Assembly: GCF_054482525.1 (NCBI RefSeq)
Contig: NZ_CM137006.1
Strand: one strand, 5' to 3'
Length of the DNA stretch: 64,000 nt
Shown: piece after piece, positions 2,173-44,166 of the stretch
Numbering within the stretch: the stretch's first letter is position 1
Layout of the letters: each line of letters opens with the position of its first letter
The notes under the pieces: generated by a model
What the model was told of the DNA's origin: nothing
Databases searched by the model: none
Seen by the model: only the letters and a program-made list of their open reading frames with translations
Made by a program: the position numbers and the translations under genes

Positions 2173-3330
2173 GTGACTTATTTCCGTATTAATCCTGTTC
2201 TGGCGCTGCTGCTGTTGCTGACGGCAATCGCAGCGGCGCTGCCGTTTATCAGTTACGCGCCTAATCGTTTAGTTTCGGGTGAGGGGCGTCATCTCTGGCA
2301 GCTGTGGCCGCAAACGATCTGGATGCTGGTGGGCGTTGGTTGCGCCTGGATGACAGCCTGTTTTATTCCCGCTAAAAAAGGCAGCATTTTTGCACTCATT
2401 CTGGCGCAATTCGTCTTCGTATTGCTGGTGTGGGGAGCAGGAAAGGCGGCGACACAACTGGCACAAAATGGCAGTGCGCTGGCGCGTACCAGCCTCGGCA
2501 GTGGTTTCTGGCTGGCTGCGGCGCTGGCATTGCTGGCCTGTAGCGATGCCATCCGCCGAATATCCACGCATCCGCTGTGGCGCTGGTTGTTGCATATGCA
2601 GATTGCCATTATTCCGCTGTGGTTGCTGTACGCCGGCACGCTTAACGATCTCTCGCTAATGAAAGAATACGCCAACCGTCAGGATGTGTTTGACGACGCG
2701 CTGGCACAACATCTGACGTTGCTGTTTGGTGCGGTGCTGCCTGCGTTAGTGATTGGTGTGCCGTTGGGCATCTGGTGCTACTTTTCCACTGCGCGGCAGG
2801 GGGCGATTTTTTCGCTACTCAATGTCATTCAGACCGTGCCTTCGGTAGCGCTCTTTGGCCTGTTGATTGCGCCGCTTGCCGCGCTGGTTACGGCCTTTCC
2901 GTGGCTGGGTAAGCTCGGCATAGCAGGAACAGGCATGACACCCGCACTGATTGCGCTGGTGCTCTATGCCTTGCTGCCGCTGGTGCGCGGCGTTGTAGTC
3001 GGCTTGAACCAGATCCCGCGCGATGTGCTGGAGAGCGCCAGAGCGATGGGCATGAGCGGGGCGCAGCGATTCCTGCATGTTCAGTTACCGCTGGCGTTAC
3101 CGGTATTTCTGCGTAGCCTGCGGGTGGTGATGGTGCAAACCGTCGGCATGGCGGTGATTGCGGCGTTAATCGGCGCAGGCGGTTTTGGTGCGCTGGTTTT
3201 CCAGGGGCTGCTAAGCAGTGCCATTGATTTAGTGTTGCTGGGGGTGATCCCGGTAATTGTTCTGGCGGTGCTGATCGATGCGCTGTTCGATTTGCTTATC
3301 GCACTGCTGAAGGTGAAACGTAATGATTGA
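2173..3330 (+). CDS. yehY: ABC transporter permease
   Basis: 385-aa polytopic hydrophobic ORF. Its stop overlaps the yehX start (3323-3330). Same length as K-12 YehY. Confidence 0.92.
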
Positions 3331-4249
3331 ATTTAGCCATGTCAGCAAACTGTTCGGCGCACAAAAAGCCGTTAACGATCTCAATCTCAATTTTCAGGAG
3401 GGGAGTTTTTCGGTGCTGATTGGTACATCAGGCTCCGGTAAATCCACCACTCTGAAAATGATTAACCGCCTGGTGGAGCATGACAGTGGCGTGATCCGCT
3501 TTGCCGGAGAAGAAATTCGCTCGCTGCCAGTGCTGGAGTTGCGCCGCCGGATGGGCTATGCCATTCAATCTATTGGCCTGTTTCCCCACTGGAGCGTGGC
3601 GCAAAACATCGCTACCGTGCCGCAATTACAAAAATGGTCACGGGCGCGGATCGACGATCGTATCGACGAATTAATGGCGCTACTGGGGCTGGAGCCAAAT
3701 TTGCGTGAGCGTTATCCGCATCAGCTTTCTGGCGGTCAGCAGCAACGTGTGGGAGTGGCGCGCGCACTGGCTGCCGATCCGCAAGTCTTACTGATGGATG
3801 AACCTTTTGGCGCACTGGACCCGGTAACGCGCGGCGCGTTGCAACAAGAGATGACGCGCATTCACCGTTTGCTGGGGCGCACTATTGTGCTGGTCACTCA
3901 TGATATTGATGAGGCGCTACGGCTGGCAGAACATCTGGTATTGATGGATCACGGTGAAGTGGTGCAGCAGGGCAATCCGCTGACGATGCTGACTCGTCCG
4001 GCGAATGATTTTGTCCGCCAGTTTTTTGGGCATAGTGAACTGGGTGTCCGCCTGCTTTCGTTACGTAGTGTGGCGGATTACGTGCGTCGCGAAGAACGGG
4101 CAGAAGGTGAGGCACTGGCAGAAGAGATGACGCTACGCGATGCGCTCTCCCTGTTTGTCGCGCGGGGATGCGAGGTGCTGCCGGTGGTGAACACGCAGGG
4201 CCAGCCTTGCGGCACGCTGCATTTTCAGGATCTGCTGGTGGAGGCGTAA
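3323..4249 (+). CDS. yehX: ABC transporter ATP-binding protein
   Basis: Walker [13 protein letters not shown] signature LSGGQQQRV and Walker B VLLMDEP. 308 aa, as in K-12 YehX. Confidence 0.94.
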
Positions 4250-9630: not shown

Positions 9631-11631
9631 TCATCCTTGTTGCTGAAGCATGTGGAATAATTGTTCGCAAAGCAAAACACCGTTATTCATTGCTTCTACC
9701 CGTGCCTCGCTTTCTGTATTACAAAATTGTGCCAACACATGTGCCAGCCGATAAAAACCGACCGCGGTGAGGTCATTCGCCAGCAACTCTGCCTGACCAA
9801 TAGCACTCTGTTCCTGATAGCGCCAGCCGTTATGGAGCAGTTGAATAAGTAACGCCTGGCAGCGCATCAGCAACTGATGAGCGGTAGACGGCACAGGCAG
9901 AACGCTGGCAGAAGGTAGCGGTGCCACAGGCGCAGTTTCTGCGTCCAGCGCCCAGGCGCGGGTTTTGGTCATCATTACCCGTGGTTCCAGTGTCAATTGC
10001 CCCTCAACAAAACTGACAAAGCCAGAAACCAGACTCACGGGGTCGTCTGTGTGTTGCAAAAGTGCCGCCATGCGTTCAACGGCAAAAGGCGCGCTGGCTG
10101 AGGCTGGCAGTGATAAAGTCAGCAGATTATCTTCACCTTCGCCGCTGATTACCTGCGCATCCAGCGTCTGGCGGCTGCTATCCCAACCGAGTGAAATACA
10201 CTCAGCGACTGGCAGAATAAATAAGTTATCCACCTGATTAAGAGGCCGTATGCAGGCGGGGGGACGCTGGCGTAAATATTCCCGCAAAGCCACAATGCCC
10301 GACTGGCGCAATGGCGCGCTCAACATTTGCCAGGCGTCTGGCGACAGCGGCACAACGCTGCTTAAGCGGTTGCGGGTAGCTAACAACAGCTCGCCATCGG
10401 CACTGCGTTTTGCTGCTTGTGAAACAATTTGCCCACCTGCCAGTGCGCCAGCCAGAAAACTAAACAGCCGACGCGTCGCTGCCGGTGAGTTTTCCTGTTC
10501 GCTTCTCGGCCAACTACGCGAAAGATGCAAAATACTGCCAGTGTCGGGATCGGTAAACCAGATGCGTAAACCATAATGCTCAATATCCTGCCAGCAACGC
10601 ATACCTAAAGACACCAGCCGCAGATGATCAAGCTTTGCTTCTCCGGCAATGCCAGAGCCAACGACCGTGCGCCACGGCACAGGAGGAACTTCACCAACAC
10701 TGTCGCGCCGGGCCATCTCTTGTGCGCAATTTAATCGACTGTTTAATGCCGCAAGCTGACGTAAGCATTCTCCGACATGATAGTGGCTGGCGCGGGCGTG
10801 GAAGGCATCAACGCTGGCGCGCAGTTGCCGTAGCGATTCACTCACCCAGCGCCAGTTGCAGCGTTCCGCCGCTTGCTGCGCGCGGCTGAAAGCAGCCTTG
10901 TAATGAATAAGCGGCTGGCTGATGCCGCCAAGCCATAACGCCTGGCTTAATTGCTGAACATATTGACGACACGCGTCGCCCTCATCGTTGGCAAACGGAT
11001 CGTCAGATGATGTGACGTGTTCGCTGCGCATCTGCCAGATTAAATGAGTAAATTCCGCTTGCTGCGCTTTGGCCTGGACAAAGGCCTGTACTGCCAGTAC
11101 GACATGTTCGCAAAGTGTGCCGTCAATACAATCACAGCGTGCGAAACGAATGCTGCTGCGGGAATAAAAACGTACATCGCTCATCGGTAAGCGGGCAGAG
11201 GGAATTTCGCCCGGCGTACAGAACAACTCAATGGTGATGCCTTTAGCGACCAGTGTCTGTGCGCGTTTGCGGGTGGCATCGGGCAGGGTAGCCAGTTCTT
11301 CCAGCCAGATTGCCGGATCCCACTCTTCTTCTTTTTCCGTAGGCTGGGTGGTGGCGCAAAGTCGCTGATAACTTAAAACCAGCATCACGCGATGGCGGCA
11401 CATGCCGCTGGCCCCGCAGCTGCATTGAGCCTCTTTCAGTGCCTGACCGTTCGCCAGCTGGGTGCGGACACCGTCACTGAAGGTGGCGATTAAAGCGCCG
11501 TTCTCATGGCTGATTTCCGGGACGTTGCCATTTTCCAGTTCTTTAAGGCTGCGCTTAACAAAACCGGCATTGCTTAACGCCGTCAAAGCTTGTGGTGTCA
11601 GTTCTAATAATTCCGGCCGTAGTGAATTCAT
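9631..11631 (-). CDS. yehQ: SWIM zinc-finger protein, last gene of yehLMPQ
   Basis: Two CxC..CxH SWIM motifs (CSCGASGMCRH and CDCIDGTLCEH). The ATG overlaps the yehP stop (ATGA at 11628-11631), which suggests translational coupling. K-12 may annotate a shorter start. Confidence 0.85.
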   Translation of the reverse strand: MNSLRPELLELTPQALTALSNAGFVKRSLKELENGNVPEISHENGALIATFSDGVRTQLANGQALKEAQCSCGASGMCRHRVMLVLSYQRLCATTQPTEKEEEWDPAIWLEELATLPDATRKRAQTLVAKGITIELFCTPGEIPSARLPMSDVRFYSRSSIRFARCDCIDGTLCEHVVLAVQAFVQAKAQQAEFTHLIWQMRSEHVTSSDDPFANDEGDACRQYVQQLSQALWLGGISQPLIHYKAAFSRAQQAAERCNWRWVSESLRQLRASVDAFHARASHYHVGECLRQLAALNSRLNCAQEMARRDSVGEVPPVPWRTVVGSGIAGEAKLDHLRLVSLGMRCWQDIEHYGLRIWFTDPDTGSILHLSRSWPRSEQENSPAATRRLFSFLAGALAGGQIVSQAAKRSADGELLLATRNRLSSVVPLSPDAWQMLSAPLRQSGIVALREYLRQRPPACIRPLNQVDNLFILPVAECISLGWDSSRQTLDAQVISGEGEDNLLTLSLPASASAPFAVERMAALLQHTDDPVSLVSGFVSFVEGQLTLEPRVMMTKTRAWALDAETAPVAPLPSASVLPVPSTAHQLLMRCQALLIQLLHNGWRYQEQSAIGQAELLANDLTAVGFYRLAHVLAQFCNTESEARVEAMNNGVLLCEQLFHMLQQQG

Positions 11632-12764: not shown

Positions 12765-15036
12765 GGAAAACTCCCCAGTGTTGCAGCGATGCCAGTGCCT
12801 GCTGTTCGAGTTGTTGATGATGTGCAATGGCTTGCGGTGGACAATGCAACGGCATTTGCAGCGCTGAAACGGGAAGCTGTGCGAGCTGGTAATGCTCAAG
12901 CACCTGATGCGCCAGCGTCCCGCGTTCTCGTGGTGGTAGCCAGGCCATCGCCGCACGCAAATCGGGCAGGGCGTTAATAAAATCGTCGTCACTCAGTTGA
13001 TTTAAATGACTACTGAAACCGGCGATAAATGCCGGCTGACAGGCCAGTTGATGGCGGGCCAGCGCCAGCAAACCGTGCAGTGCCTCGCCGGATTGTGCCG
13101 GGGATAATTGCGCCAGCATCGTCAGCGCCGCTTCGGCACTGGCGTTGGGATGTTCCAGACGCATCAGTGCGCCAAGAGCCGCGCCGCGATCCAGCGCCGA
13201 GGCATGAATCGCCTGACTGCGGCGCTCAAGTAAGGCTACCGCCGCAGAAAGCGAAACGCCGGGTAAATTAACGCCGCTATGTAGATCGCGCAGGATATGG
13301 CAAAGCGCCTGCCAGCTATGCAGGTGAGCGTGAAACTCCTTTTCCTCCGGTCTGCCGTTGGATTCACACAGCCAGAGTGTGCGATCGATAGCCGCGCATA
13401 ACGTCGTCTGTAATATCTGCGCGCCTTGCATACCGCTAATTTCATCCAGCCGCCATAAGGCGTATAGCACTTCCAGCGCCTGGCCCATTTCGGCAAACTG
13501 ATTTTCCTGGGCGATTAATAATGTAAGTTGCTCCAGTAATTGTTGACTGAAGGACGCCAGACCCGCTAACGCCGCCTGGCTAAGACATGTGGTGATACTG
13601 CCGATTCCACCCGCGTCCAGCATATCGGCTTCTAATTTATTGCGTGCGGCTTCCTGGAGTGTGGCACCAAAGCAGGCGGCCTCAATTAATGCCGCATGTT
13701 GGCTAAGCGGGCGGGTTAATTTCCAGCGTTCTTCACCGTTGCCTGCAAGTGTCAGTGTACTTCCCTGCTGGCGCACAACCCCTGGGATCTCCAGTATTGC
13801 CAGCCGATGTAACACCTGACTTTGCGCTAGTCCATTGGGGTTAAAGCGATTTAAGGTAAGCTCCGCCGGAAGAGAGATTGCGGTACGTTCCAGTTCGCAG
13901 GTGACATCTTTTGGCAGAGGCGGTTGTGGCGTAGAAGGGGCAAGTTTACCGAATCCGTCACCCGCTAATGTGTCTATCAACGTTAGCAGAATCGGATCGG
14001 TATCGGGATGAATAACGCCGCGATAGCTCCACGGCAACGGCGCATTCAGGGCTTCTTTAATCAGCGAGCCTGCTATGGCATCCAGCCAGTCAGTGCGTAA
14101 CGGTAGTGTATGACCGCGCAACTGTGCCAGTGCCATCGCATGCAGATGAGCGGCAGCCATATCCGCTGTTGAAGCAGGCAAGTGGTGCTGGCGCAAACGG
14201 GTAAGAACCGTTTTCAGCAGTTGTTCACCTGCCTGCTGCAAGCCCCACCGCCAGCACCAGTTTTGCCAGACCGGGGCAGGCATACCGGAAAGGTATCCTG
14301 CCAGCACATCAAGGCGCTTTTCACTGTAGGGTGTGAGATAACAACCTGTAACGGCATCATCCAGTAAGAGCAATTCTGGCGTGTTAATTACCTGCGGACA
14401 TTCGCGCCACATTTTTGCCAGTGCCGGAGCGTGCCAGCCACCGCAGACAACTAACACGTCGCCATTATTTTGCTGCATCGCCCATCCAATCCAGCGGGCC
14501 ATAAAGGCTTCGCGCTGACGATTGAGAGCATCTCCGGGGGAGTCGCCCCGCAGTTGGGCAAAATAGTGCGCAAGTGCAGAGGGTAATGCAGTTTGCTGCC
14601 TTTCATCTTCGAACAAGTGATCCCACAGGGTGTCGCTGTTATCCATGCGGGTGGCACGCAGCAGCAAGGTCTGGCTTTCCTCTTGCGTATCAGGCGAATC
14701 GTCCTCTTCTTCACTCTGCGCCCAGCAAGGCAAATCGATGAAGTAAGTTTGTGCCTGAATACGACGAGCGGCTTGTAGCGCCTGCCACTCCGGCGAAAAT
14801 TCAGCAAATGGCGTCCAGGCACCACGCCCGGGGGCCGCACCGTCCTGATACTGGCAATAACTGTAAATAGCTACCGGAAGCTGGTGGGCTAACAACAGTT
14901 CGTCTACCCGGTCATTAAAATCAGCCGGGCCTTCAATCAACACATATCGTGGCCGCTGGCTTTCGATTAACGATTTCACCAGCCGGGCGCAGGCCGGACT
15001 ATGATGCCGGATGCCGACAATTAACGGCTCGCTCAT
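12757..15036 (-). CDS. yehM: large uncharacterised protein of the yehLMPQ operon
   Basis: Start at MSEPLIVGIRHHSPACARL (759 aa, as in K-12 YehM), preceded by an AGGAAA Shine-Dalgarno that contains the yehL stop codon. Confidence 0.9.
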   Translation of the reverse strand: MSEPLIVGIRHHSPACARLVKSLIESQRPRYVLIEGPADFNDRVDELLLAHQLPVAIYSYCQYQDGAAPGRGAWTPFAEFSPEWQALQAARRIQAQTYFIDLPCWAQSEEEDDSPDTQEESQTLLLRATRMDNSDTLWDHLFEDERQQTALPSALAHYFAQLRGDSPGDALNRQREAFMARWIGWAMQQNNGDVLVVCGGWHAPALAKMWRECPQVINTPELLLLDDAVTGCYLTPYSEKRLDVLAGYLSGMPAPVWQNWCWRWGLQQAGEQLLKTVLTRLRQHHLPASTADMAAAHLHAMALAQLRGHTLPLRTDWLDAIAGSLIKEALNAPLPWSYRGVIHPDTDPILLTLIDTLAGDGFGKLAPSTPQPPLPKDVTCELERTAISLPAELTLNRFNPNGLAQSQVLHRLAILEIPGVVRQQGSTLTLAGNGEERWKLTRPLSQHAALIEAACFGATLQEAARNKLEADMLDAGGIGSITTCLSQAALAGLASFSQQLLEQLTLLIAQENQFAEMGQALEVLYALWRLDEISGMQGAQILQTTLCAAIDRTLWLCESNGRPEEKEFHAHLHSWQALCHILRDLHSGVNLPGVSLSAAVALLERRSQAIHASALDRGAALGALMRLEHPNASAEAALTMLAQLSPAQSGEALHGLLALARHQLACQPAFIAGFSSHLNQLSDDDFINALPDLRAAMAWLPPRERGTLAHQVLEHYQLAQLPVSALQMPLHCPPQAIAHHQQLEQQALASLQHWGVFHV

Positions 15037-36142: not shown

Positions 36143-36224
36143 CAACCAAACGACTCGGGGTGCCCTTCTGCGTGAAGGCTGAGAAATACCCGTATCACCT
36201 GATCTGGATAATGCCAGCGTAGGG
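36143..36224 (+). repeat. attL: 82-bp direct repeat, a 5' portion of the TPP (thi-box) aptamer that lacks the 3' strand of the closing helix and the expression platform
   Basis: Identical base for base to 44033-44114. It contains CTGAGA and the other thi-box core sequences. It diverges from the thiM leader after ..GCGTAGGG. Confidence 0.9.
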
Positions 36225-36307
36225 GGCCAAAATAGTCTTGAAAATTATGTGGTTGTATCTCTTTTTGACCATAAATCATGCTGTTAAGGTACAAAAAGGG
36301 GTCGTTT

Positions 36308-37615
36308 ATGAGGTCAAGAACTCTCCCATACACATTTCAGCGAAACGGTAATTACTATCTACAAATCCGGCTTTCGGATGGTCGGATATACAAAAAATCA
36401 CTTTTTACTGACAGTTATCGCGAAGCATCGGCGTTGATGATTGGCCTTACTCCGCACATTCCTTTCGTTAAATCACTCGCTACTCCGTTGCCGCAATTTA
36501 ATAAGTTTGTTTCAAACTTGATCGCTTCGTCACGTAACGTAATGATTCCGTTGCCACTCCCTCAGCAATTGAACAATATTTCTAAAGAAGTTTTGCAGCT
36601 TCAACCACCAGCCAAACCGGAAAAGGTACTAACACTTGCTGATGCGTGGGCTATGTACAAGGAGGAAAGAGGTCGAAATTGGACAAAATCGATCTCAATA
36701 GCAAATGAGCGTTATATGGAGGTATTGCTTGTTGTCTTGGGAAAAGAAACAGACGTAACGGCAATCACCAAACAAGATATTAAGCGAGTAATGGAAACTG
36801 TCGAAAACTTACCAAAGCGTGTAGTGCAACCGTATAGGTCAATGACTATTCAGCAACTAATCGAATGTGATGATGTGCTGCCAGAGGATTTAGTTGGTGC
36901 TGAGGCTGTACATAAGCACCTTAAAATCTACAAATCGTTATTCAAAACATTTCTGACTGAAAACAAAGATATTCTATCTAAGTCTCCGACTGATGGAATA
37001 GTAGCGGCACCATCCAAAGCTAGGTTTGGTGCATACAGTGCAGCAGAAATGAAAAAATTTGTAGGATGGGCACTAAAGCAGCCTGATGGATGGCAGAAGT
37101 GGATCACTTTGTTGTTGGCGTACACAGGAGCCAGAAGAGGTGAGATTGCTAAACTGGAGAAGTCGCAGATCAAATTTGATGAAGATAGCCAGCGGCACTA
37201 TCTTCTGATCGCGGAAAGAAGGCTGGGTAAAACTGAGAATGCTACAAGACAGGTAGTGATTCATCCCAAACTGATTGAGTGGGGGTTTCTGGATTTTGTT
37301 AACCGCCAATGGAAAGAGAAAATCTTTTCGGAAGTCTCAGGTCGAAATATGTCAAAGATAGGTAAAGTTCTTTCAGATGTTCGTGATCAGCTTGATATTC
37401 CTTATCTTGATGATTATGGGCAGCGGCGCTTGGTGCATAGTTTCCGGCATACTATGATTTCTACTTGTTTAGCTGGTTGGGTGAGTAATTTGGCGCATCT
37501 GCAACAGGTGGTAGGTCATGAAAAGAGTGGAGTAGGGATTACCCAGCGTTATCTGCACACATTCCCACTTTCCACCGTTTGTTATGTGATCGATGGTCTT
37601 TGTTGGGAGACTTAG
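36308..37615 (+). CDS. tyrosine recombinase / integrase
   Basis: The ORF in the track starts at 36278. I prefer the ATG at 36308, after an AAAGGGG Shine-Dalgarno. N-terminal arm-binding-like RNGNYYLQIRL, then catalytic-domain motifs ARRGEI, HSFRHT and GHEKSGVGITQRYLH (Tyr). Confidence 0.88.
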   Translation: MRSRTLPYTFQRNGNYYLQIRLSDGRIYKKSLFTDSYREASALMIGLTPHIPFVKSLATPLPQFNKFVSNLIASSRNVMIPLPLPQQLNNISKEVLQLQPPAKPEKVLTLADAWAMYKEERGRNWTKSISIANERYMEVLLVVLGKETDVTAITKQDIKRVMETVENLPKRVVQPYRSMTIQQLIECDDVLPEDLVGAEAVHKHLKIYKSLFKTFLTENKDILSKSPTDGIVAAPSKARFGAYSAAEMKKFVGWALKQPDGWQKWITLLLAYTGARRGEIAKLEKSQIKFDEDSQRHYLLIAERRLGKTENATRQVVIHPKLIEWGFLDFVNRQWKEKIFSEVSGRNMSKIGKVLSDVRDQLDIPYLDDYGQRRLVHSFRHTMISTCLAGWVSNLAHLQQVVGHEKSGVGITQRYLHTFPLSTVCYVIDGLCWET

Positions 37616-37743
37616 TTATTCGTGTATCCTTCTTAGTGTATAACCAGCTAATAATTTGTAGATTTTTATTGTCTGAGATCAAAAATTTTCACAACTAATT
37701 TACAATAATAACTTAAGATGAATTTAGGCTTAGTGAGTCTTCT

Positions 37744-38469
37744 ATGGTTAAAAATTTAGGCAAAAAATACAAGTATGGCGATCAACCGATAAGAGCTATT
37801 ACCATACAGATAATTGCTAATCAGTTTGGTGGGGCTGCAACGGCTAAGCAGGTAGATGATTATCTTAGAAAGCTATTTCCATCTTATAAAGATAATACTT
37901 GGCTCAATTTAATTGCTAATACAGTTAATTGTAAGCGGAGCTACTGGAGTTTCAACAAAACTGCCCGACGAACTGATGATGTAACTCATCGGCATCATAA
38001 GTATGACCGATTGTTCAAGCGTGGAAATATTTTTGAAATCTATCAACCATCTGTGCACGGTATTTGGGAATTATACCAGGATTTAGAAGGGATGTGGCGT
38101 TATCGTCAAGTAAAATCGGTTTTCGAAGAAGCTGTTGAGACGGCTGCAAAATTATCTTCAGTGGAACGAAAGCAAATTTTAGCGACAGAAAGTAAAATCC
38201 CGGAACTAATCGAAGTAACAACACGAGTTTATAAACGAAGCCCATATGTAGTTGCTGAAGTTCTTTTGAGAGCAAATGGAAAATGTCAATATTGTAAGCG
38301 AGATGCTCCTTTTCTAAAGGAAGATGGTACTCCATTTCTAGAAGTTCATCATATTGAGTGGCTTTCAAAGGGGGGGGAGGACTCTGTGGAAAATGCTATT
38401 GCATTATGTCCTAATTGCCATAGACAAGCCCATTATGGCGATCTGACATTACTACCTGTTAATAAATAG
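37744..38469 (+). CDS. HNH nuclease-domain protein with an uncharacterised 170-aa N-terminal domain (McrA-like architecture)
   Basis: C-terminal CQYCKRDAPF..EVHHIEWLSKGGEDSVENAIALCPNCHRQAH is a canonical HNH/zinc-ribbon motif. No adjacent methyltransferase gene. Confidence 0.8.
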   Translation: MVKNLGKKYKYGDQPIRAITIQIIANQFGGAATAKQVDDYLRKLFPSYKDNTWLNLIANTVNCKRSYWSFNKTARRTDDVTHRHHKYDRLFKRGNIFEIYQPSVHGIWELYQDLEGMWRYRQVKSVFEEAVETAAKLSSVERKQILATESKIPELIEVTTRVYKRSPYVVAEVLLRANGKCQYCKRDAPFLKEDGTPFLEVHHIEWLSKGGEDSVENAIALCPNCHRQAHYGDLTLLPVNK

Positions 38470-38546
38470 GCTTGATGAAAGTTCTATTTCTATATTTTTC
38501 AATATACAAATTTCCCCAAAAACGGCGTGAATATCACGCCGATCAA

Positions 38547-38894
38547 TCATACTTCAGAACACATACTCAATGTGTAAACAGCCATCTCCCCATCGGGATT
38601 AGAAGGGCGTAATACAAATATCGGTATACTGCCATTGTCAATGTATGTGGCTGCAACCCCTCCGTCAGGTGTAGCATACATCTTTGCGATGCTTTTTTGA
38701 CCTACAAAATCAAGTCTCCAAGTTTTACCGCCAAGATTTATGGTCATTTTTTTATCTTGTATATCAAAAGTTGAATCTACAGAAACTTTCTGACTTCCCG
38801 AGTCAATATGACCTTCCTGTATTGCTTTACAGGAAAAGGTTGTGGCGTGGCCCATCACTGGAATTAACAAAGCGGCAAATACTAGTTTTTTCAT
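38547..38894 (-). CDS. small secreted protein of unknown function
   Basis: I prefer the start at MKKLVFAALLIPVMGHA (signal peptide), after an AAGGGAGA Shine-Dalgarno. 115 aa with two Cys. The ORF-track start at 38951 is rejected. Confidence 0.7.
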   Translation of the reverse strand: MKKLVFAALLIPVMGHATTFSCKAIQEGHIDSGSQKVSVDSTFDIQDKKMTINLGGKTWRLDFVGQKSIAKMYATPDGGVAATYIDNGSIPIFVLRPSNPDGEMAVYTLSMCSEV

Positions 38895-39004
38895 TTGTCT
38901 CCCTTGGTGTGTCAAATGGATGGTGATGCTAATAATACATGATTGATTCAAAATGTCACGATTAGTGCGTGGTTAATTGGTGCGTCAAATTGCATCTTTG
39001 TGCC

Positions 39005-39469
39005 ATGCGAAAGAATCTGAGATACCTTTTTGGACAACGAGTAAAAGAGTTCCGTATAGCTATTGGCTTAAGCCAAGAGGCCTTTGCAGATCGGTGTGGT
39101 TTTGCACGTAGTTATATGAGTCGAATTGAGCGTGGTTGCTCTAATGCATCTCTTGATGCAATTGAGGTTCTGGCTGACGCTTTGCGTATTGAGCCTTGGC
39201 AGTTACTGGCTTCTGATTCAAGGAAACCTGATGATCAGGAGGTACTTGTTCCTTATGCTGCAGATGGGTCGTGTTTTCATCCAGGATTGGCAAGTACTCG
39301 CGATGGTTCGTTTAGAGTAGGGGAAAAATCAGCCCAGAAACGTTTCAGTTCGTTCAATGAAGCTCTCGAATACCTTCGTGGAATGGAAACCGCGAAGTGG
39401 CGTAGGCCTAATGCTAGTGGTAATTGGGGAATTGTATCTGCGGTTAAATGGGATCGACTGAATCAATAA
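39005..39469 (+). CDS. XRE-family HTH protein fused to an uncharacterised C-terminal domain
   Basis: HTH region LSQEAFADRCGFARSYMSRIERGCSNASLDAIEVLADAL. The 90-aa C-terminal part (..ETAKWRRPNASGNWGIVSAVKWD..) is not recognisable to me. Start chosen at MRKNLRYLFG. Confidence 0.75.
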   Translation: MRKNLRYLFGQRVKEFRIAIGLSQEAFADRCGFARSYMSRIERGCSNASLDAIEVLADALRIEPWQLLASDSRKPDDQEVLVPYAADGSCFHPGLASTRDGSFRVGEKSAQKRFSSFNEALEYLRGMETAKWRRPNASGNWGIVSAVKWDRLNQ

Positions 39470-39635
39470 GATATCAGTAATTTTCGGGCCACTCCACAAG
39501 GCAATAAGTGGCTTAGTGGTGATTATCGAAGGGGAATACAAGCGAGCACCTAGGCACCATTGCAAGAACCGCTCAACGCTGAGATCAGCAAGCCCCGATT
39601 TTTGCCGACCGTCCCTGTCAAATATCAAGGAGGCA

Positions 39636-40187
39636 TTACGCCACCTGCTCTTTCTTGATACGTTGCACCGTCTGCGTGCTGACACTGAAATCTTTTGCTA
39701 CGCTCCGAATTGAGCCACCATTCGCGAGAGCGGCAGCAATTCCCGCTCGATCAATTGCTTTTCCATTACCACGTTTTGCTATACGTCCAGCGGCCTTGGC
39801 TGCGGCGATCCCTTCACGTTGACGCTCAAGCATCATTTCACGTTCCATTTGTGCCACTGCTGCAAGAACTGTGAGCATCATATTCCCTGCGGGAGAGTTC
39901 TTTCCTGTCTTAAAGTCTTCTTTATGGAAATGCACAGACACGCCGCGCTTTGTTAATTGCTCTACAGTTGCCAGAAGGTCGGCTGTATTACGACAAAGGC
40001 GATCAATACTATGGACGTGTAACACGTCACCCTCCCGCACATAGTTCATCATTGCCTCAAACTGTGGGCGCTGAGTGTTCTTGCCTGACGCTTTATCTTC
40101 AAAGACTTTATCAAGAGTTACTCCTGCTAATTGACGGTCTGTGTTTTGTTGCACAGTCGATACCCTAATGTATCCAATATTAGCCAT
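39636..40187 (-). CDS. serine recombinase (resolvase/invertase family)
   Basis: MANIGYIRVSTVQQNTDRQ contains the catalytic Ser. Also VHSIDRLCRN and a C-terminal HTH (SIRSVAKDFSVSTQTVQRI). 183 aa. Confidence 0.9.
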   Translation of the reverse strand: MANIGYIRVSTVQQNTDRQLAGVTLDKVFEDKASGKNTQRPQFEAMMNYVREGDVLHVHSIDRLCRNTADLLATVEQLTKRGVSVHFHKEDFKTGKNSPAGNMMLTVLAAVAQMEREMMLERQREGIAAAKAAGRIAKRGNGKAIDRAGIAAALANGGSIRSVAKDFSVSTQTVQRIKKEQVA

Positions 40188-40214
40188 CTTCTTTTTTCTT
40201 CTGTATTGATTTGT

Positions 40215-40318
40215 GTGTAGTGATTATTGAACGTGTTGATTAGGTGTGTAAAGTACTTTTTTCACTACGAAATTCGAAGTTTTTTAGTGTGGTGATTTAG
40301 CCTGCCTTATCACTACAC
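40215..40318. promoter_or_regulatory. res-like site upstream of the serine recombinase gene
   Basis: Perfect 10-bp inverted repeat GTGTAGTGAT (40215-40224) / ATCACTACAC (40309-40318), with inner related half-sites TCACTAC (40262-40268) and TAGTGTGGTGA (40285-40295). Confidence 0.5.
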
Positions 40319-40572
40319 TTCTTGCATGAGAATCATGTAGTTACATTTTGGTAAAATTAGCAAGCTATTAAATTGTGTGTTTATTTTGAAAAAATAATTT
40401 TTGTTGCATTAAAGAAAACTTGTTCGACAAATAATAGGTTGATTTTTGATCAATAATTTCTGATAGTGCTCTGTAAGCCGCATTACACAAGGCGCAGCGA
40501 AAGTGATGTAAAAGTGAAGAAAGCTAACATTGCACTTTTAAACTACTTTTCATTGAATTTTTTAGTATGGAA

Positions 40573-40643
40573 TTACACAGGAATAAGTTAGGGATATTCT
40601 ATGATTTACACAGGGAATATAGGGGGATTATGGTATTACACAG
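40573..40643 (+). repeat. three direct repeats of about 20 bp with core TTACACAG, spaced 33 and 30 bp
   Basis: TATGGAATTACACAGGAATA, TATGATTTACACAGGGAATA and TATGGTATTACACAGAGTGA. Cores are at 40573, 40606 and 40636. Confidence 0.7.
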
Positions 40644-40673
40644 AGTGAGTGCTATGTGATGATTGGTAGTAAC

Positions 40674-40782
40674 GGTAGGTCACTGTGAACTAGGGGGGTA
40701 GGTCACTGTGAACTAGGGGGGTAGGTCACTGTGAGCTAGGGGGTAGGTCACTGTGAACTAGGGGGTAGGTCACTGTGAACTA
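40674..40782 (+). repeat. five contiguous iterons (GGTAGGTCACTGTGAACTAGGGG, period 23/23/22/22 bp): putative vegetative origin
   Basis: Read directly from the sequence. Copy 3 carries one A-to-G change. The array is immediately followed by an AT-rich tract. Confidence 0.85.
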
Positions 40783-40877
40783 CAATAAGACTATAATAAG
40801 ACTATTAATAAAACTATATTAGATTATTAATTAGATCATAATAATAATATTCTTTATATCTATATATATATGATCTT
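40783..40877. other. AT-rich tract next to the iterons (candidate DNA-unwinding element)
   Basis: Almost pure A/T, with internal AATAAGACTAT x2 and a TATATATATAT run. Confidence 0.5.
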
Positions 40878-41883
40878 TTGCCTTCCGGCGTTAGCTTCAC
40901 TCTCTGGCAAGCAGCCTTACTCCGCTACCTTTCGGGCTACGTTGGCTGGCCCGTTCCGCTCACACCGAAAGCAAAGCGTTACTTTCTTCGTGTAACTTCG
41001 TTGGCGGTAACGCCCACGAAGGAATACTATTGCGCTGTGCGCAGTAAGAGTAATCACCTAACCAATCATCTGATTGCTTACGTGTTAACTCTCTCTAACT
41101 CTTAATTACCCTCCTACATTTAATAACTCTCGTTATTCTCTGTAGTTGTGTAATTACTCGAAGAGAGAGCGGCTAAAGCTCAATTACACTCTGCTTTCCT
41201 CGTGTAATTTCACTAAGCCTCAATACAATTTCACTTCCTACATTCTGTAGTCGTGTAATTGTTTTCGGTGGAAAAGCCAGAGGCGACACCGAAAGAGAAT
41301 TCTGATCTTATTAATCTTATCTATCTTAGTTATCTTACTTACTTTATCTACTTTATTATTAATAATAGCTTTATAAGCTCTCTGTGTAGCTCTCTGACGC
41401 AAGAAACAGAGTTCAGGAAGGGAATCACCTTAGAAAAGTGTTCTTTGCGTCATAATGTGTTTTATGAAGGATTCAGAGGTGTTTCATAACAGAGATGTAT
41501 AGAGGATACTTTAGGTAATTAAAAATAAGGGGTCTAAATGCTTCTCTAACAGCATTAAGCAGGGTAGAGAATGGAAACCGCTTTGCCTACATATATAAAC
41601 TCACTACAGGGCTTTACAGAGCGTTTTATAAAGTGACTCTCTGTTTTATATCTACCATCACCTTTTCATATACCTAACAAATACAAAATAAGCCCCTTAA
41701 ATAAGCCTCTGGCGAGCTAAACAGCCATTACATAAGAGAATGTATTGCTTTTATCAAAACCTCGTTAGAACGCGTTTTAGAGCGTTTTAGCGGATAATGA
41801 AGAATAGCACTACACAGGAGAGCACGAATTGCTAAGAAAAAATGTAACTACATGAAAAAGATCAGATTTTTTGTGAAAAGGTA

Positions 41884-41912
41884 TTGACAAACGTCTCTTT
41901 CTGTGCAATAAT
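41884..41912 (+). promoter_or_regulatory. predicted sigma70 promoter upstream of the rep-like operon
   Basis: TTGACA (41884-41889), 17 bp, then AATAAT (41907-41912). Confidence 0.5.
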
Positions 41913-41965
41913 AGGTATTAGAGGGACAGGAATAGATTCTTATCCTCTAAATAATTAAACCAATG

Positions 41966-42010
41966 CACCGCACTTTGAAGCCCAAGGCTTGTAAGGTGTG
42001 TTTTTTCTTT
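41966..42010 (+). terminator. intrinsic-terminator-like hairpin between the promoter and the first ORF (attenuator, or the 3' end of a roughly 90-nt sRNA)
   Basis: Long imperfect stem 41966-41982/41986-42000 around a CAA loop, followed by TTTTTTCTTTT. It lies 29 bp upstream of the ATG at 42039. Confidence 0.55.
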
Positions 42011-42038
42011 TAACCAAATAGAATAAGGAGGCTAATTA

Positions 42039-42227
42039 ATGAAATATTTTACTCCACAGGATGTAGTAGAAGCCTGGAAACGTGGTGAGATCAACCGCTT
42101 TAAAGTAAGGATGTATAGAAACACCGCTCGCCGTTGTGGTTATCCAGAGCGTGAAAAATGTTTTGACGATGCACTAAAAATTATTGATGAACTGCGTAAA
42201 GCTGAGAAAGAAGCAGAGAAAAAATAA
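42039..42227 (+). CDS. 62-aa basic/acidic small protein, unknown function
   Basis: Strong AAGGAGG Shine-Dalgarno 8 nt upstream. It is the first ORF of a tightly packed 4-gene cluster. Confidence 0.65.
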   Translation: MKYFTPQDVVEAWKRGEINRFKVRMYRNTARRCGYPEREKCFDDALKIIDELRKAEKEAEKK

Positions 42228-42249
42228 TAGACAAGAGAAGGAGAAAACT

Positions 42250-42417
42250 ATGAGCGAAACTAAGAAACCAATTCCGCGCACTTACCTACACGTTGACCCT
42301 GAAATCTTCAAGGTTTTATTTGCTGAAGCCAAGAAAAGGCAAATTATGGTCAGTGATTTGATGTTAGAAATCATTACTGAAGCAGCAGAGAACATCAAAC
42401 AAAAAAAGGGTAAGTGA
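42250..42417 (+). CDS. 55-aa ribbon-helix-helix (CopG/Arc-like) protein candidate
   Basis: Start at MSETKKPIPRTYLHV after AAGGAGAA. The beta-strand, helix, helix pattern (RTYLHVDPEIFKVLFAEAKKRQIMVSDLMLEII) fits an RHH fold. The ORF-track start at 42184 is rejected. Confidence 0.6.
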   Translation: MSETKKPIPRTYLHVDPEIFKVLFAEAKKRQIMVSDLMLEIITEAAENIKQKKGK

Positions 42418-42468
42418 TCCTCATTCACTTTAGTAGCGCATTAAGCGTGATTTATAAGGAGATTTTTA

Positions 42469-43158
42469 ATGATTAATCAACTAACTTTTACAAAACACTA
42501 TGACACGTTTGATAATGTATCAAAGATTTATTCTGATAAATTCCCTCAAGGAAAAGATTTAGATCTATTACATATTGTGCTTTATTTTCGATTCCTTAGT
42601 TATCAGGAAAACAACCTTAATTGTTATGAAAGTCACGAAACATTAGCTAAGATTTTTAAGTCTTCAGCGTCAACAATTAAACGTAAGATAAACGATCTTA
42701 AAGAGATGGGATTATTAGAAACATCCCCACATCCTGATCCGTATATTTCATCTTTGATTTACAATGCTCTCCCTCTCACAGATGCACATATTACTCCCCC
42801 AGGAGAATCATCACTCTCTGATCTTTCTGAGGCAGAAGAAGCACAGGAACAACCTAAAGGCCATAAACAGCCTTCTTTTGATGTTCTTGATGATTGGGAT
42901 ACGCCTTTACCCTGGGAGACGGAAGAAACACCTGTTTCATCAAGTGAAAAAGTAGCTAATGATAATGAGGAGGATGTGTTAGAGAATTTTGCCTCTCTTA
43001 TCATCCAGGAGAAACACACAAGAACAGGAGGAGCATCATTTATTGAGTTTGCAAATTCACTAGCTTGTAGATACGGGCTAAAACGACCAAATGGTATTGA
43101 GGCATATTTTTCTAAGAATTACCCAAATATATACGATGACTTTGATATTCCATTTTAA
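42469..43158 (+). CDS. putative replication initiator (winged-helix N-terminal domain, acidic C-terminal half)
   Basis: HETLAKIFKSSASTIKRKINDLKEMGLLE is an HTH/wHTH like those in DnaD/Rep-type initiators. AAGGAG Shine-Dalgarno. It is encoded near the iteron array. The function is inferred. Confidence 0.55.
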   Translation: MINQLTFTKHYDTFDNVSKIYSDKFPQGKDLDLLHIVLYFRFLSYQENNLNCYESHETLAKIFKSSASTIKRKINDLKEMGLLETSPHPDPYISSLIYNALPLTDAHITPPGESSLSDLSEAEEAQEQPKGHKQPSFDVLDDWDTPLPWETEETPVSSSEKVANDNEEDVLENFASLIIQEKHTRTGGASFIEFANSLACRYGLKRPNGIEAYFSKNYPNIYDDFDIPF

Positions 43159-43169
43159 TAAGGAGGGTT

Positions 43170-43415
43170 ATGATTCAATATTTAGTAAAAAATCAAGTAG
43201 ACAGAATTCAGTGTAATGACACAGGAAAACGCATCTACGAGACACTTGTTTACCTCTATAAAGGAAAGCCAACACCGCTAAAATATAGCGATGTGTTACA
43301 TCGAGCAGGTTGCTCTGAGTCAGGTTTAAAATTCTGGCTGAAACAGCTATCAAATTTCGGTGTTATTGAAATGAAAGAGCTGTCTTTTTCTACATTCAAC
43401 CTCAAGAAGTTATAG
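43170..43415 (+). CDS. 81-aa winged-helix-like small DNA-binding protein candidate
   Basis: AAGGAGGG Shine-Dalgarno. The YSDVLHRAGCSESGLKFWLKQLSNFGVIE segment looks like a wHTH. Confidence 0.55.
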   Translation: MIQYLVKNQVDRIQCNDTGKRIYETLVYLYKGKPTPLKYSDVLHRAGCSESGLKFWLKQLSNFGVIEMKELSFSTFNLKKL

Positions 43416-43483
43416 AAAATAGAATTCATCTATTCCACGCTCTAATTCTATTTCTCTGTTTAATATAAAAGGAAAACATTATT

Positions 43484-43561
43484 ATGGTAATAGCTATGTG
43501 GTGGTTGTTGTTTTTTATGCTCGTAGAAACATATGCAAGTAAGTCTGGAAAACAAAAATAA
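43484..43561 (+). CDS. candidate 25-aa hydrophobic peptide (MVIAMWWLLFFMLVETYASKSGKQK)
   Basis: Hand-translated. AAGGA lies 10 nt upstream. It has a hydrophobic N-terminal part and a basic tail, like type I toxins or small membrane peptides. There is no other support. Confidence 0.25.
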   Translation: MVIAMWWLLFFMLVETYASKSGKQK

Positions 43562-43580
43562 TATATTGATGATTTGTTTT

Positions 43581-43820
43581 TTATAACTTCGTGGTGTCAA
43601 GTCCAGCAGCTTTGAGTCGCTCGGTAAGATTTCTCATTTTGCTGAACTCTGTACCAAAGCTGGCTTTAAGTCCTACACCTTCACAAAACTCTTTTGCCGT
43701 AACCTTTTTCAGATGGTCAGCATATTTGATCATCTGGAGGTGCATTTCCATCGTTTGGCTATTTCGTGGTGCGCTGCTAATGGCTTGCTTAATGTTCTCG
43801 TAGATCTGGGTTTCTGTCAT
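43581..43820 (-). CDS. 79-aa protein of unknown function at the right end of the island
   Basis: Clean ORF, MTETQIYENIKQAISSAPRNSQ... It is the last gene before attR. Confidence 0.6.
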   Translation of the reverse strand: MTETQIYENIKQAISSAPRNSQTMEMHLQMIKYADHLKKVTAKEFCEGVGLKASFGTEFSKMRNLTERLKAAGLDTTKL

Positions 43821-44032
43821 TTTTTATCTCACCTATCAAATTTAGATAAATAATATAAATTAGCAAATTAAGATAATCAATAGTTTTTATCATCTGAATG
43901 ATAGATGTTAAATGTTTCTTTTTCATTTCTGATATGGGGTACAAAATGGGGTACACAGAGAAGAAGCAATTAATGGAGGCGAGCTTGCATCTGCAAGCCA
44001 CTTCCCCTAAGCTGGCACAAAATATAGAGATT

Positions 44033-44166
44033 CAACCAAACGACTCGGGGTGCCCTTCTGCGTGAAGGCTGAGAAATACCCGTATCACCTGATCTGGATA
44101 ATGCCAGCGTAGGGAAGTCACGGACCACCAGGTCATTGCTTCTTCACGTTATGGCAGGAGCAAACT
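44033..44166 (+). promoter_or_regulatory. complete TPP (thi-box) riboswitch of thiM; its first 82 nt form the attR repeat
   Basis: CGACTCGGGGTGCCCTTCTGCGTGAAGGCTGAGAAATACCCGTATCACCTGATCTGGATAATGCCAGCGTAGGGAAGTC matches the well-studied E. coli thiM aptamer. It is followed by the native expression platform and a GGAG Shine-Dalgarno. Confidence 0.92.

Follow-up and report, generated by a model that had tools for sequence, protein, structure and literature searches.

The DNA analysed here is a stretch of 64,000 nucleotides (the window) from contig NZ_CM137006.1 of assembly GCF_054482525.1, and our subject is a promoter-like site with a terminator-like hairpin behind it (41884-42038), which lie directly in front of an operon for a putative replication initiator (Rep-like) protein. 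Between positions 41500 and 43500 the window matches the chromosome of E. coli PCN033 at 100% identity, and the stretch under study is E. coli chromosome in which an island of about 8 kb (36143-44114) is inserted in the thiamine pyrophosphate (TPP) riboswitch of thiM. Perfect 82-nt direct repeats (36143-36224 and 44033-44114) bound the island and cover the TPP riboswitch aptamer upstream of thiM. The left part of the island encodes, in this order, a tyrosine integrase, an HNH protein, a protein of unknown function and an XRE-type helix-turn-helix (HTH) protein; the middle holds a serine recombinase gene on the minus strand (39636-40187) and then 1.85 kb without genes (40188-42038); and the right part consists of four plus-strand genes starting at 42039 and an HTH_73 gene on the minus strand. 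BLAST searches found homologues in 704 of 5,426 complete E. coli genomes (approximately 13%, about one in eight), and 805 of the 806 places at which they occur in these genomes are chromosomal.

The promoter-like site is of the sigma-70 type and lies on the plus strand at 41884-41912. It consists of TTGACA (41884-41889), a 17-bp spacer and an extended -10 element TGcAATAAT (41904-41912), in which TG occupies 41904-41905 (-15/-14) and AATAAT occupies 41907-41912. The hexamers and the spacer are exactly as an earlier inspection of the letters (hereafter the sequence-only reading) had described them. The site scored 11/12 in our promoter scan, and no other site on the two strands of the 64-kb window reached 11/12 or more. 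Across the leader types found in relatives, the -35 hexamer is invariant and its spacing to the -10 hexamer is kept, and the latter occurs as AATAAT, TAAAGT, TATTGT, TAGAAT or TATAGT. The transcription start site (TSS) would be at 41919 +/- 2.

Downstream of this predicted start, a terminator hairpin of 14 bp with a bulged G (41991) and the loop CAA occupies 41969-42000 on the plus strand. Its minimum free energy is -15.6 kcal/mol (z -2.6), and 1 of 200 shuffled sequences was equally stable. The U-tract TTTTTTCTTTT (42001-42011, read from the sequence) stands directly 3' of the stem on the same strand, giving a stable stem followed by UUUUUUCUUUU on the transcribed strand, which is the build of an intrinsic terminator, and it ends 27 nt before the ATG of the first open reading frame of the operon (ORF1, 42039). 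The hairpin had previously been placed at 41966-42000; it is real, conserved and followed by a U-tract, and only its start needs to be moved, 3 nt to the right. A simple terminator scan skipped it because of the bulge. No further copy of the hairpin was found elsewhere in the window or in phage genomes, and the matches to it in IMG/VR outside the element family were rejected as chance matches inside genes.

We collected relatives by BLAST against E. coli genomes, by protein-based scans of IMG/VR, GTDB genomes and metagenomes, and by a DNA pattern scan of IMG/VR; a scan of a collection of genome contigs returned a single locus. A total of 82 loci were retrieved without using the hairpin, 77 of which had an identifiable ORF1 and enough upstream sequence. 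The results showed that 75 of these 77 keep the hairpin (mean -16.9 kcal/mol) and a U-rich 9-mer ending 25-40 nt before ORF1, and that the two exceptions carry an IS1 insertion between the Shine-Dalgarno (SD) sequence and the ATG in one case and lie on a rearranged contig in the other. Relatives of 70-95% identity show little or no variation in the -35 hexamer, the hairpin and the U-tract, and because of this conservation the feature stands above chance. At least four leader types occur in Escherichia, which differ in the spacer, the -10 hexamer (AATAAT, TAAAGT or TATTGT), the 5' stem-loop and the SD sequence, and one locus (L080) is a mosaic that combines the promoter of one type with the hairpin loop of another and the SD sequence of a third. 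Hairpin energies across the relatives range from -15 to -17.5 kcal/mol, with z from -2.6 to -4.4. The terminator of the Escherichia types follows a near-invariant consensus, GCACUUUG(A)AGCC, a loop, GGC(U)UGCAAGGUG and then the U-tract, and the loop itself varies freely (CAA, CAAGA, CAACAA, GUCA, AUAA). In distant relatives (L058, L063, L068, L138 and others), the gene order is the same and ORF1 is only about 40% identical; their leader sequence is unrelated, yet they carry the same hairpin sequence and a U-tract, beyond which the sequence differs again. Since the U-tract persists between unrelated flanks, this points to terminator function rather than a mere hairpin. A comparison of the leader with 50,697 phage genomes gave no sequence similarity.

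The stem also changes in a manner that preserves its pairing. Two double substitutions in the metagenomic locus L120, which also has another loop, turn U-A into C-G and G-C into A-U and leave both positions paired; in five sequences, one A-U pair is missing as a whole. In a pair-counting test, for which this paired deletion was marked with N placeholders to keep the columns in register, 99.5% of the cells were paired, two pairs were changed on both sides, and 2 of 500 shuffles did as well, and all slid registers dropped to 24-50% paired. The covariation is thin since most stems are identical, but it is clean where present. Because of the compensatory changes in L120, it is pairing rather than sequence that appears to be kept, and these comparisons indicate that the pairing of the stem is maintained by selection. 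The plus strand folds with -15.6 kcal/mol in the window and -17.5 kcal/mol in the commonest leader type (z -2.6 and -3.2), whereas the minus strand reaches just -11.1 and -11.3 kcal/mol (z -0.8 and -1.6). The hairpin is strand-specific because it contains two invariant G-U pairs, which points to an RNA element of the plus strand and not to a DNA palindrome or a minus-strand terminator.

The predicted transcript would be shaped by two hairpins, the first of which is an element that the sequence-only reading had not listed. Folding placed this 5'-terminal stem-loop at 41919-41949 on the plus strand, starting within 1-2 nt of the predicted TSS. In four Escherichia leader types its fold is kept through differing sequences (GGGA/UCC, GGGG/CCCC, GGAGAGA/UCUCUCC), with one-sided changes that create or remove G-U pairs; covariation was judged here from the folds, as the sequences are not reliably alignable. 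The stem-loop is absent in the distant relatives. It fits an RNA hairpin that protects the 5' end, and thereby lends indirect support to the proposed TSS. Between the two hairpins lies an A/U-rich linker, AAUAAUUAAACCAAUGCAC (41950-41968, plus strand), which is unpaired in all folds and whose motif UCUAAAUAAUYAAA is invariant in the Escherichia types and not kept in the distant relatives. Small RNAs (sRNAs) of the Hfq type likewise have a terminator hairpin that ends in a long U tail and is flanked by an A/U-rich site.

The four genes behind the leader are all on the plus strand. ORF1 (42039-42227) follows the SD sequence AAGGAGG (42025-42031) and encodes a basic protein of 62 amino acids, as shown by the ORF calls and family alignments; no other gene ever stands between it and the hairpin, the basic motif RN..R..GY.ER of its product is conserved, and AlphaFold2 predicted a three-helix protein (predicted local distance difference test score 86.8). 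In L058, L063 and L068, all from IMG/VR, the ORF1 homologue apparently starts at a CTG 5 nt downstream of AGGAGG, and neither ATG nor GTG occurs in frame close to it. The second gene (42250-42417, ORF call) encodes 55 amino acids and is missing from several relatives. It gave no sequence match in Pfam, NCBIfam or PDB, and its AlphaFold2 model, made for the monomer only, consists of an extended N-terminus and one long helix; the ribbon-helix-helix (RHH) label that had been attached to it thus has neither profile nor structural support. The third gene (42469-43158) encodes the Rep-like protein of 229 amino acids with an N-terminal winged HTH, which matches PHROG replication-initiation families (best match phrog_270, E 1.9e-9) and scores 24.4 bits against Pfam HTH_36, just below the 25-bit cut-off. 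The fourth gene (43170-43415, ORF call) encodes 81 amino acids. A promoter-like site of 10/12 lies inside the operon at 42487. Insertion sequence (IS) hits on the control region and operon recur: IS1 sits exactly between the ORF1 SD sequence and ATG in L032 (approximately 2710-3500), and IS2 lies between the second gene and the Rep-like gene in L031 (3187-4415) and just after the Rep-like gene in L025 (3704-4932).

Five iterons of 22-23 bp (GGTAGGTCACTGTGARCTAGGGG) followed by an AT-rich tract are located at 40671-40787, 1.1 kb upstream of the promoter-terminator feature, and are conserved in relatives; together they form the presumed replication origin served by the Rep-like protein. The RefSeq record of PCN033 has six iteron copies, one more than the window, which differs from the record here, so that their number is polymorphic. 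Because of the iterons and the PHROG replication-initiator match of the third gene, the label of a Rep-like operon appears reasonable, and the earlier statement that a terminator-shaped hairpin lies upstream of such an operon holds.

The gene-free region is unusually long, 1.85 kb in the window (40188-42038) and 3 kb in a relative from E. coli O26 (L024, 6215-9220), and shows no conserved coding signal. It contains a GC-rich, hairpin-rich block (approximately 40870-41300) and ATCTTAYYT repeats with a 9-bp periodicity (41299-41358), and could hold single-strand initiation signals or an undescribed RNA. Upstream of about 41690 there are two unrelated sequence forms among the relatives, and the homology common to all element types starts near this position. 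The shared block (41690-41883, plus strand) includes AGAGCACGAATTGCTAAG and TGAAAAAGATC, both retained even in distant relatives, where the second motif lies about 12 bp further upstream. Within 41820-41883, AGAGCACGAATTGCTAAG spans roughly -95 to -78, and TGAAAAAGATC, which contains a Dam site (GATC, 41860-41863, about -59), lies near -60. A CRP/FNR-like site, TGA-N6-TCA, at about -60 was considered and rejected, as relatives do not keep its right half. A perfect 17-bp inverted repeat (40333-40349 and 41839-41855) flanks a 1,489-bp part of the gene-free region; it adjoins the Hin/resolvase-type serine recombinase gene (39636-40187, minus strand), and its right arm ends 29 bp before the -35 hexamer. 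We discarded an invertible segment as its explanation, since none of the 5,426 E. coli genomes has an inverted junction and only thiM-type elements contain the repeat.

Full-length relatives are about 12 kb long, an example being the element at thrW (tRNA-Thr) of E. coli O26:H11 11368 (L024, 321.4-333.7 kb of the record), and L068 is another of this kind. They have the same leader and early genes, then three more genes in the same direction and then the integrase. The three extra genes encode a lambda-E-like major capsid protein, a protein of 609 amino acids (609-621 across relatives) with a tape-measure PHROG match, and a Dit-like tail protein; terminase, portal and tail tube genes were not recognised in L024 or L068. 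L024 also has, immediately behind the major capsid gene, a second hairpin with a T-run that resembles an intrinsic terminator (13500-13524), and an extended -10 promoter-like site of 10/12 before the structural module (11545-11573). In its make-up, the element family resembles a phage satellite or a prophage that has been heavily reduced. We found no published description of it in the literature, and the full-length relatives may represent an undescribed satellite family.

Two virulent phages of about 147 kb, inny (in Justusliebigvirus) and muut, carry DNA 97-99% identical to that of the 55-amino-acid gene. In inny (L139, 1501-2125; window 42238-42807) the match runs on into the 5' part of the Rep-like gene, and the Rep N-terminal region is fused into a protein of 367 amino acids. 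The matches hint at a recent exchange of DNA between these phages and the element, or at interference between them. Because of the near-identical copies of the second gene and of the Rep N-terminal region, a link between the element and the virulent Justusliebigvirus phages is possible. At the insertion site of the island, the left copy of the 82-nt repeat follows the native promoter region of thiM and precedes the integrase ORF (36278-37615) by about 55-85 nt, and the right copy lies in front of thiM. With this arrangement, the integrase could be under thiamine-riboswitch control, and thiM would depend on upstream sequence derived from the island.

The sequence-only reading had regarded the promoter and hairpin as a classical design of plasmid copy-number control. 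This interpretation is not supported, given an element that is chromosomal at 805 of 806 places and whose full-length relatives carry capsid- and tail-like genes, and the parts of such a design are missing as well. In 16 leader variants truncated before the 3' arm of the terminator, no antiterminator or preemptor fold was found, and alternative pairings of the 5' arm add approximately 0.8-3.6 kcal/mol (at most about -4), compared with -15 to -17.5 kcal/mol for the terminator. No minus-strand promoter-like site was found at 41919-42038; the nearest is a weak 9/12 site inside ORF1 (42208-42180), and its presence in relatives can be put down to conservation of the protein motif ALKIIDELRK. A leader peptide from the ATG at 41963 was rejected, as this ATG has no SD sequence, opens a frame that changes from one leader type to the next and does not occur at all in leader type D, L120 and L058. 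The leader gave no Rfam match at E values up to 10, including none of the C4/CI type. Self-targeting as in phage P4 was likewise discarded, the complementarity between leader RNA and operon mRNA being no higher than in shuffled controls (p 0.6 and 0.075). Pairing with the SD sequence was another rejected candidate: the segment 41102-41115 (TTAATTACCCTCCT) is 93% complementary to the ORF1 SD region, but it shows no covariation with the SD sequence in relatives. There is no conserved single-stranded seed across the family, as distant relatives replace both the linker and the 5' hairpin.

Taken together, the promoter and the leader terminator very likely limit or gate the Rep-like operon and yield an RNA of about 90 nt. 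We put the probability that premature termination, regulated or by default, is their main function at roughly 0.55. Under the mechanism that we propose, the near-consensus, extended -10 promoter would start an RNA at about 41919 in the control region of the rightward early (replication) operon, and this RNA would form a protective 5' stem-loop, an A/U-rich linker and then a strong intrinsic terminator 27 nt before ORF1. The integrated element would thus make mainly a leader RNA of approximately 85-95 nt, with ORF1, the second protein and the Rep-like initiator off, and termination would be the default because the leader has no competing structure. Expression of the operon, and hence firing of the iteron origin, would need read-through. 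This could be imposed in trans by an antiterminator that modifies RNA polymerase or binds the hairpin and comes from the element, a helper phage or the host; otherwise it may be mere leak. The short RNA would, in the simplest view, be a by-product, as at lambda/Stx PR'-tR'. Actual termination, the antiterminating factor and the role in induction are what we infer from the computed features. The earlier proposal that transcription mostly stops here to give an RNA of about 90 nt, or that read-through is regulated, is a fair reading of a conserved, plus-strand-specific hairpin and U-tract, with the qualification that no competing antiterminator fold accompanies it.

Several observations weigh against premature termination as the main function. 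The promoter match alone proves little, as composition-matched first-order Markov simulations gave 0.9 sites of at least 11/12 per window and 0.36 per island, so that one such site is within the chance expectation for an AT-rich island, and the promoter could be repressed in vivo. The TSS, the termination efficiency and the read-through have all been deduced from sequence. No gene for a Q-, N-, BglG- or ANTAR-like antiterminator was recognised among the proteins of the island or of the full-length relatives, and the ORF1 model had no structural match in PDB. Some natural variants have a weaker U-tract (CUAUUUCUUUU, UUUUAUUUCUUUU), and yet the element has not obviously been lost in them. Conservation of the stem sequence goes beyond the demands of a generic terminator, also in relatives whose ORF1 shares just about 40% identity, and the stem may therefore have an additional or different sequence-specific role, or serve as a linker for homologous recombination between mosaic modules. 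This near-invariance is the main hint of sequence-specific recognition, and it leads to the tentative idea, which we consider rather doubtful, that the hairpin with its bulged G and G-U pairs is the recognition element of a dedicated antiterminator, either the ORF1 protein or a helper-phage protein. On this reading, the promoter-terminator pair would be the induction switch of an undescribed Escherichia family of 8-12-kb, iteron-replicating satellites with capsid- and tail-like genes.

The same conservation bears on the other explanations. If the terminator were unregulated and partially efficient, it would hold Rep at a fixed low level under a strong promoter and insulate the operon from rightward transcription across the gene-free origin region. 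The lack of a sensor, an alternative fold or an antiterminator gene suits such a device, as do the weakened U-tracts, and the hairpin is the only plus-strand terminator-like element between the recombinase gene and ORF1 (our scan of 40000-44000 listed no other there). However, a near-consensus extended -10 promoter combined with a strong terminator is a costly route to low constitutive expression, the extreme degree to which the stem sequence is conserved hints at a specific recognition, and a switch from silence to replication needs a regulated step, for which no other regulated operon promoter was identified; we therefore think it rather improbable that the terminator is just a dampener. A near-invariant stem, conserved beyond structural need together with its bulged G and G-U pairs and found with the same sequence between unrelated flanks in distant relatives, could also be expected of a recognition or processing site, such as a site for RNase III or an RNA-binding protein in the 5' untranslated region, through which the translation of ORF1 or the stability of the mRNA would be controlled, or a protein-binding site in the DNA. 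This seems very unlikely as its main role, as the U-tract is conserved too where the sequence beyond differs, the compensatory changes in L120 indicate that pairing rather than sequence is kept, and the G-U pairs and the weak minus-strand fold speak against a DNA palindrome.

We also considered that the short terminated RNA is itself the functional product, either a trans-acting sRNA of the Hfq/ProQ type or a copy-control RNA, and that the operon is expressed only incidentally by read-through. Its 5' stem-loop, A/U-rich stretch, terminator hairpin and tail of at least 6 U are the typical build of a stable enterobacterial sRNA, the linker UCUAAAUAAUYAAA does not vary in any Escherichia type, and StxS is a precedent for a by-product RNA that gained a regulatory role (PMC7547250). 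Nevertheless, distant relatives keep only the terminator and the family as a whole shares no seed, complementarity to the operon mRNA stays at the level of shuffled controls, the candidate anti-SD segment does not covary with the SD sequence, and no Rfam family was matched, which makes a functional RNA as the primary product unlikely.

Premature termination in front of an operon has known counterparts, one of which is found in lambdoid phages. In Shiga toxin (Stx) phages, PR' fires constitutively, but in lysogeny its transcripts end a short way downstream, and the resulting short RNA has become the sRNA StxS (PMC7547250). As at PR'-tR' (lambda 6S RNA, StxS), the sequence of the element predicts a strong activator-independent promoter with an intrinsic terminator within approximately 100-200 nt, a short stable RNA in the integrated state, and a long operon, including the structural genes in the full-length relatives, that would be expressed only by read-through. 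Unlike at PR'-tR', we found neither a Q gene nor a Q-binding element or recognisable pause signal, and a helper-encoded factor is possible; moreover, the gated genes are early replication genes and not late lysis and structural genes, and they belong to a satellite-like island of approximately 8-12 kb and not to a complete phage.

Another counterpart is the immunity system of P4, in which transcription from the constitutive P_LE is terminated prematurely and the CI RNA pairs with the complementary seqA and seqC. The two cases have in common an integrated satellite, a replication operon that is transcribed constitutively and stopped early in the leader, and a small RNA derived from this leader, although here the leader RNA has no above-chance complementarity downstream and no Rfam match of the C4/CI type, and the replication protein is unrelated. 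Countertranscript attenuation in pT181, pIP501 and pAMbeta1 needs an antisense promoter in the leader and a preemptor/terminator alternative. What these plasmids share with our element is an intrinsic terminator within a rep operon leader that adjoins an iteron-type or plasmid-like origin, but neither an antisense promoter nor a preemptor was found here, and the element is chromosomal, with 82-nt repeats and an integrase. In pMV158, copG-repB is controlled with the antisense RNAII and Rep is of the rolling-circle type. A gene for a small putative DNA-binding protein just upstream of a rep-like gene in one operon is a shared trait; in contrast to pMV158, the RHH fold is unconfirmed here, the second gene is missing in several relatives, an antisense RNA was not found, and the Rep-like protein belongs to the winged-HTH/iteron type. 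The control logic is a known one of the phage type.

If the terminator is the gate, a single RNA element of about 45 nt sets silence versus replication of an island present in about one-eighth of complete E. coli genomes. If this is true, the element would join, as a satellite-like addition, the small set of systems with constitutive transcription and premature termination (lambda PR'-tR' and P4), and the gate would provide an experimental handle on the inducer of the element and on the phage that it parasitises, if any. The predicted island RNA of about 90 nt, which is probably abundant, could have gained host-directed functions, as StxS did.

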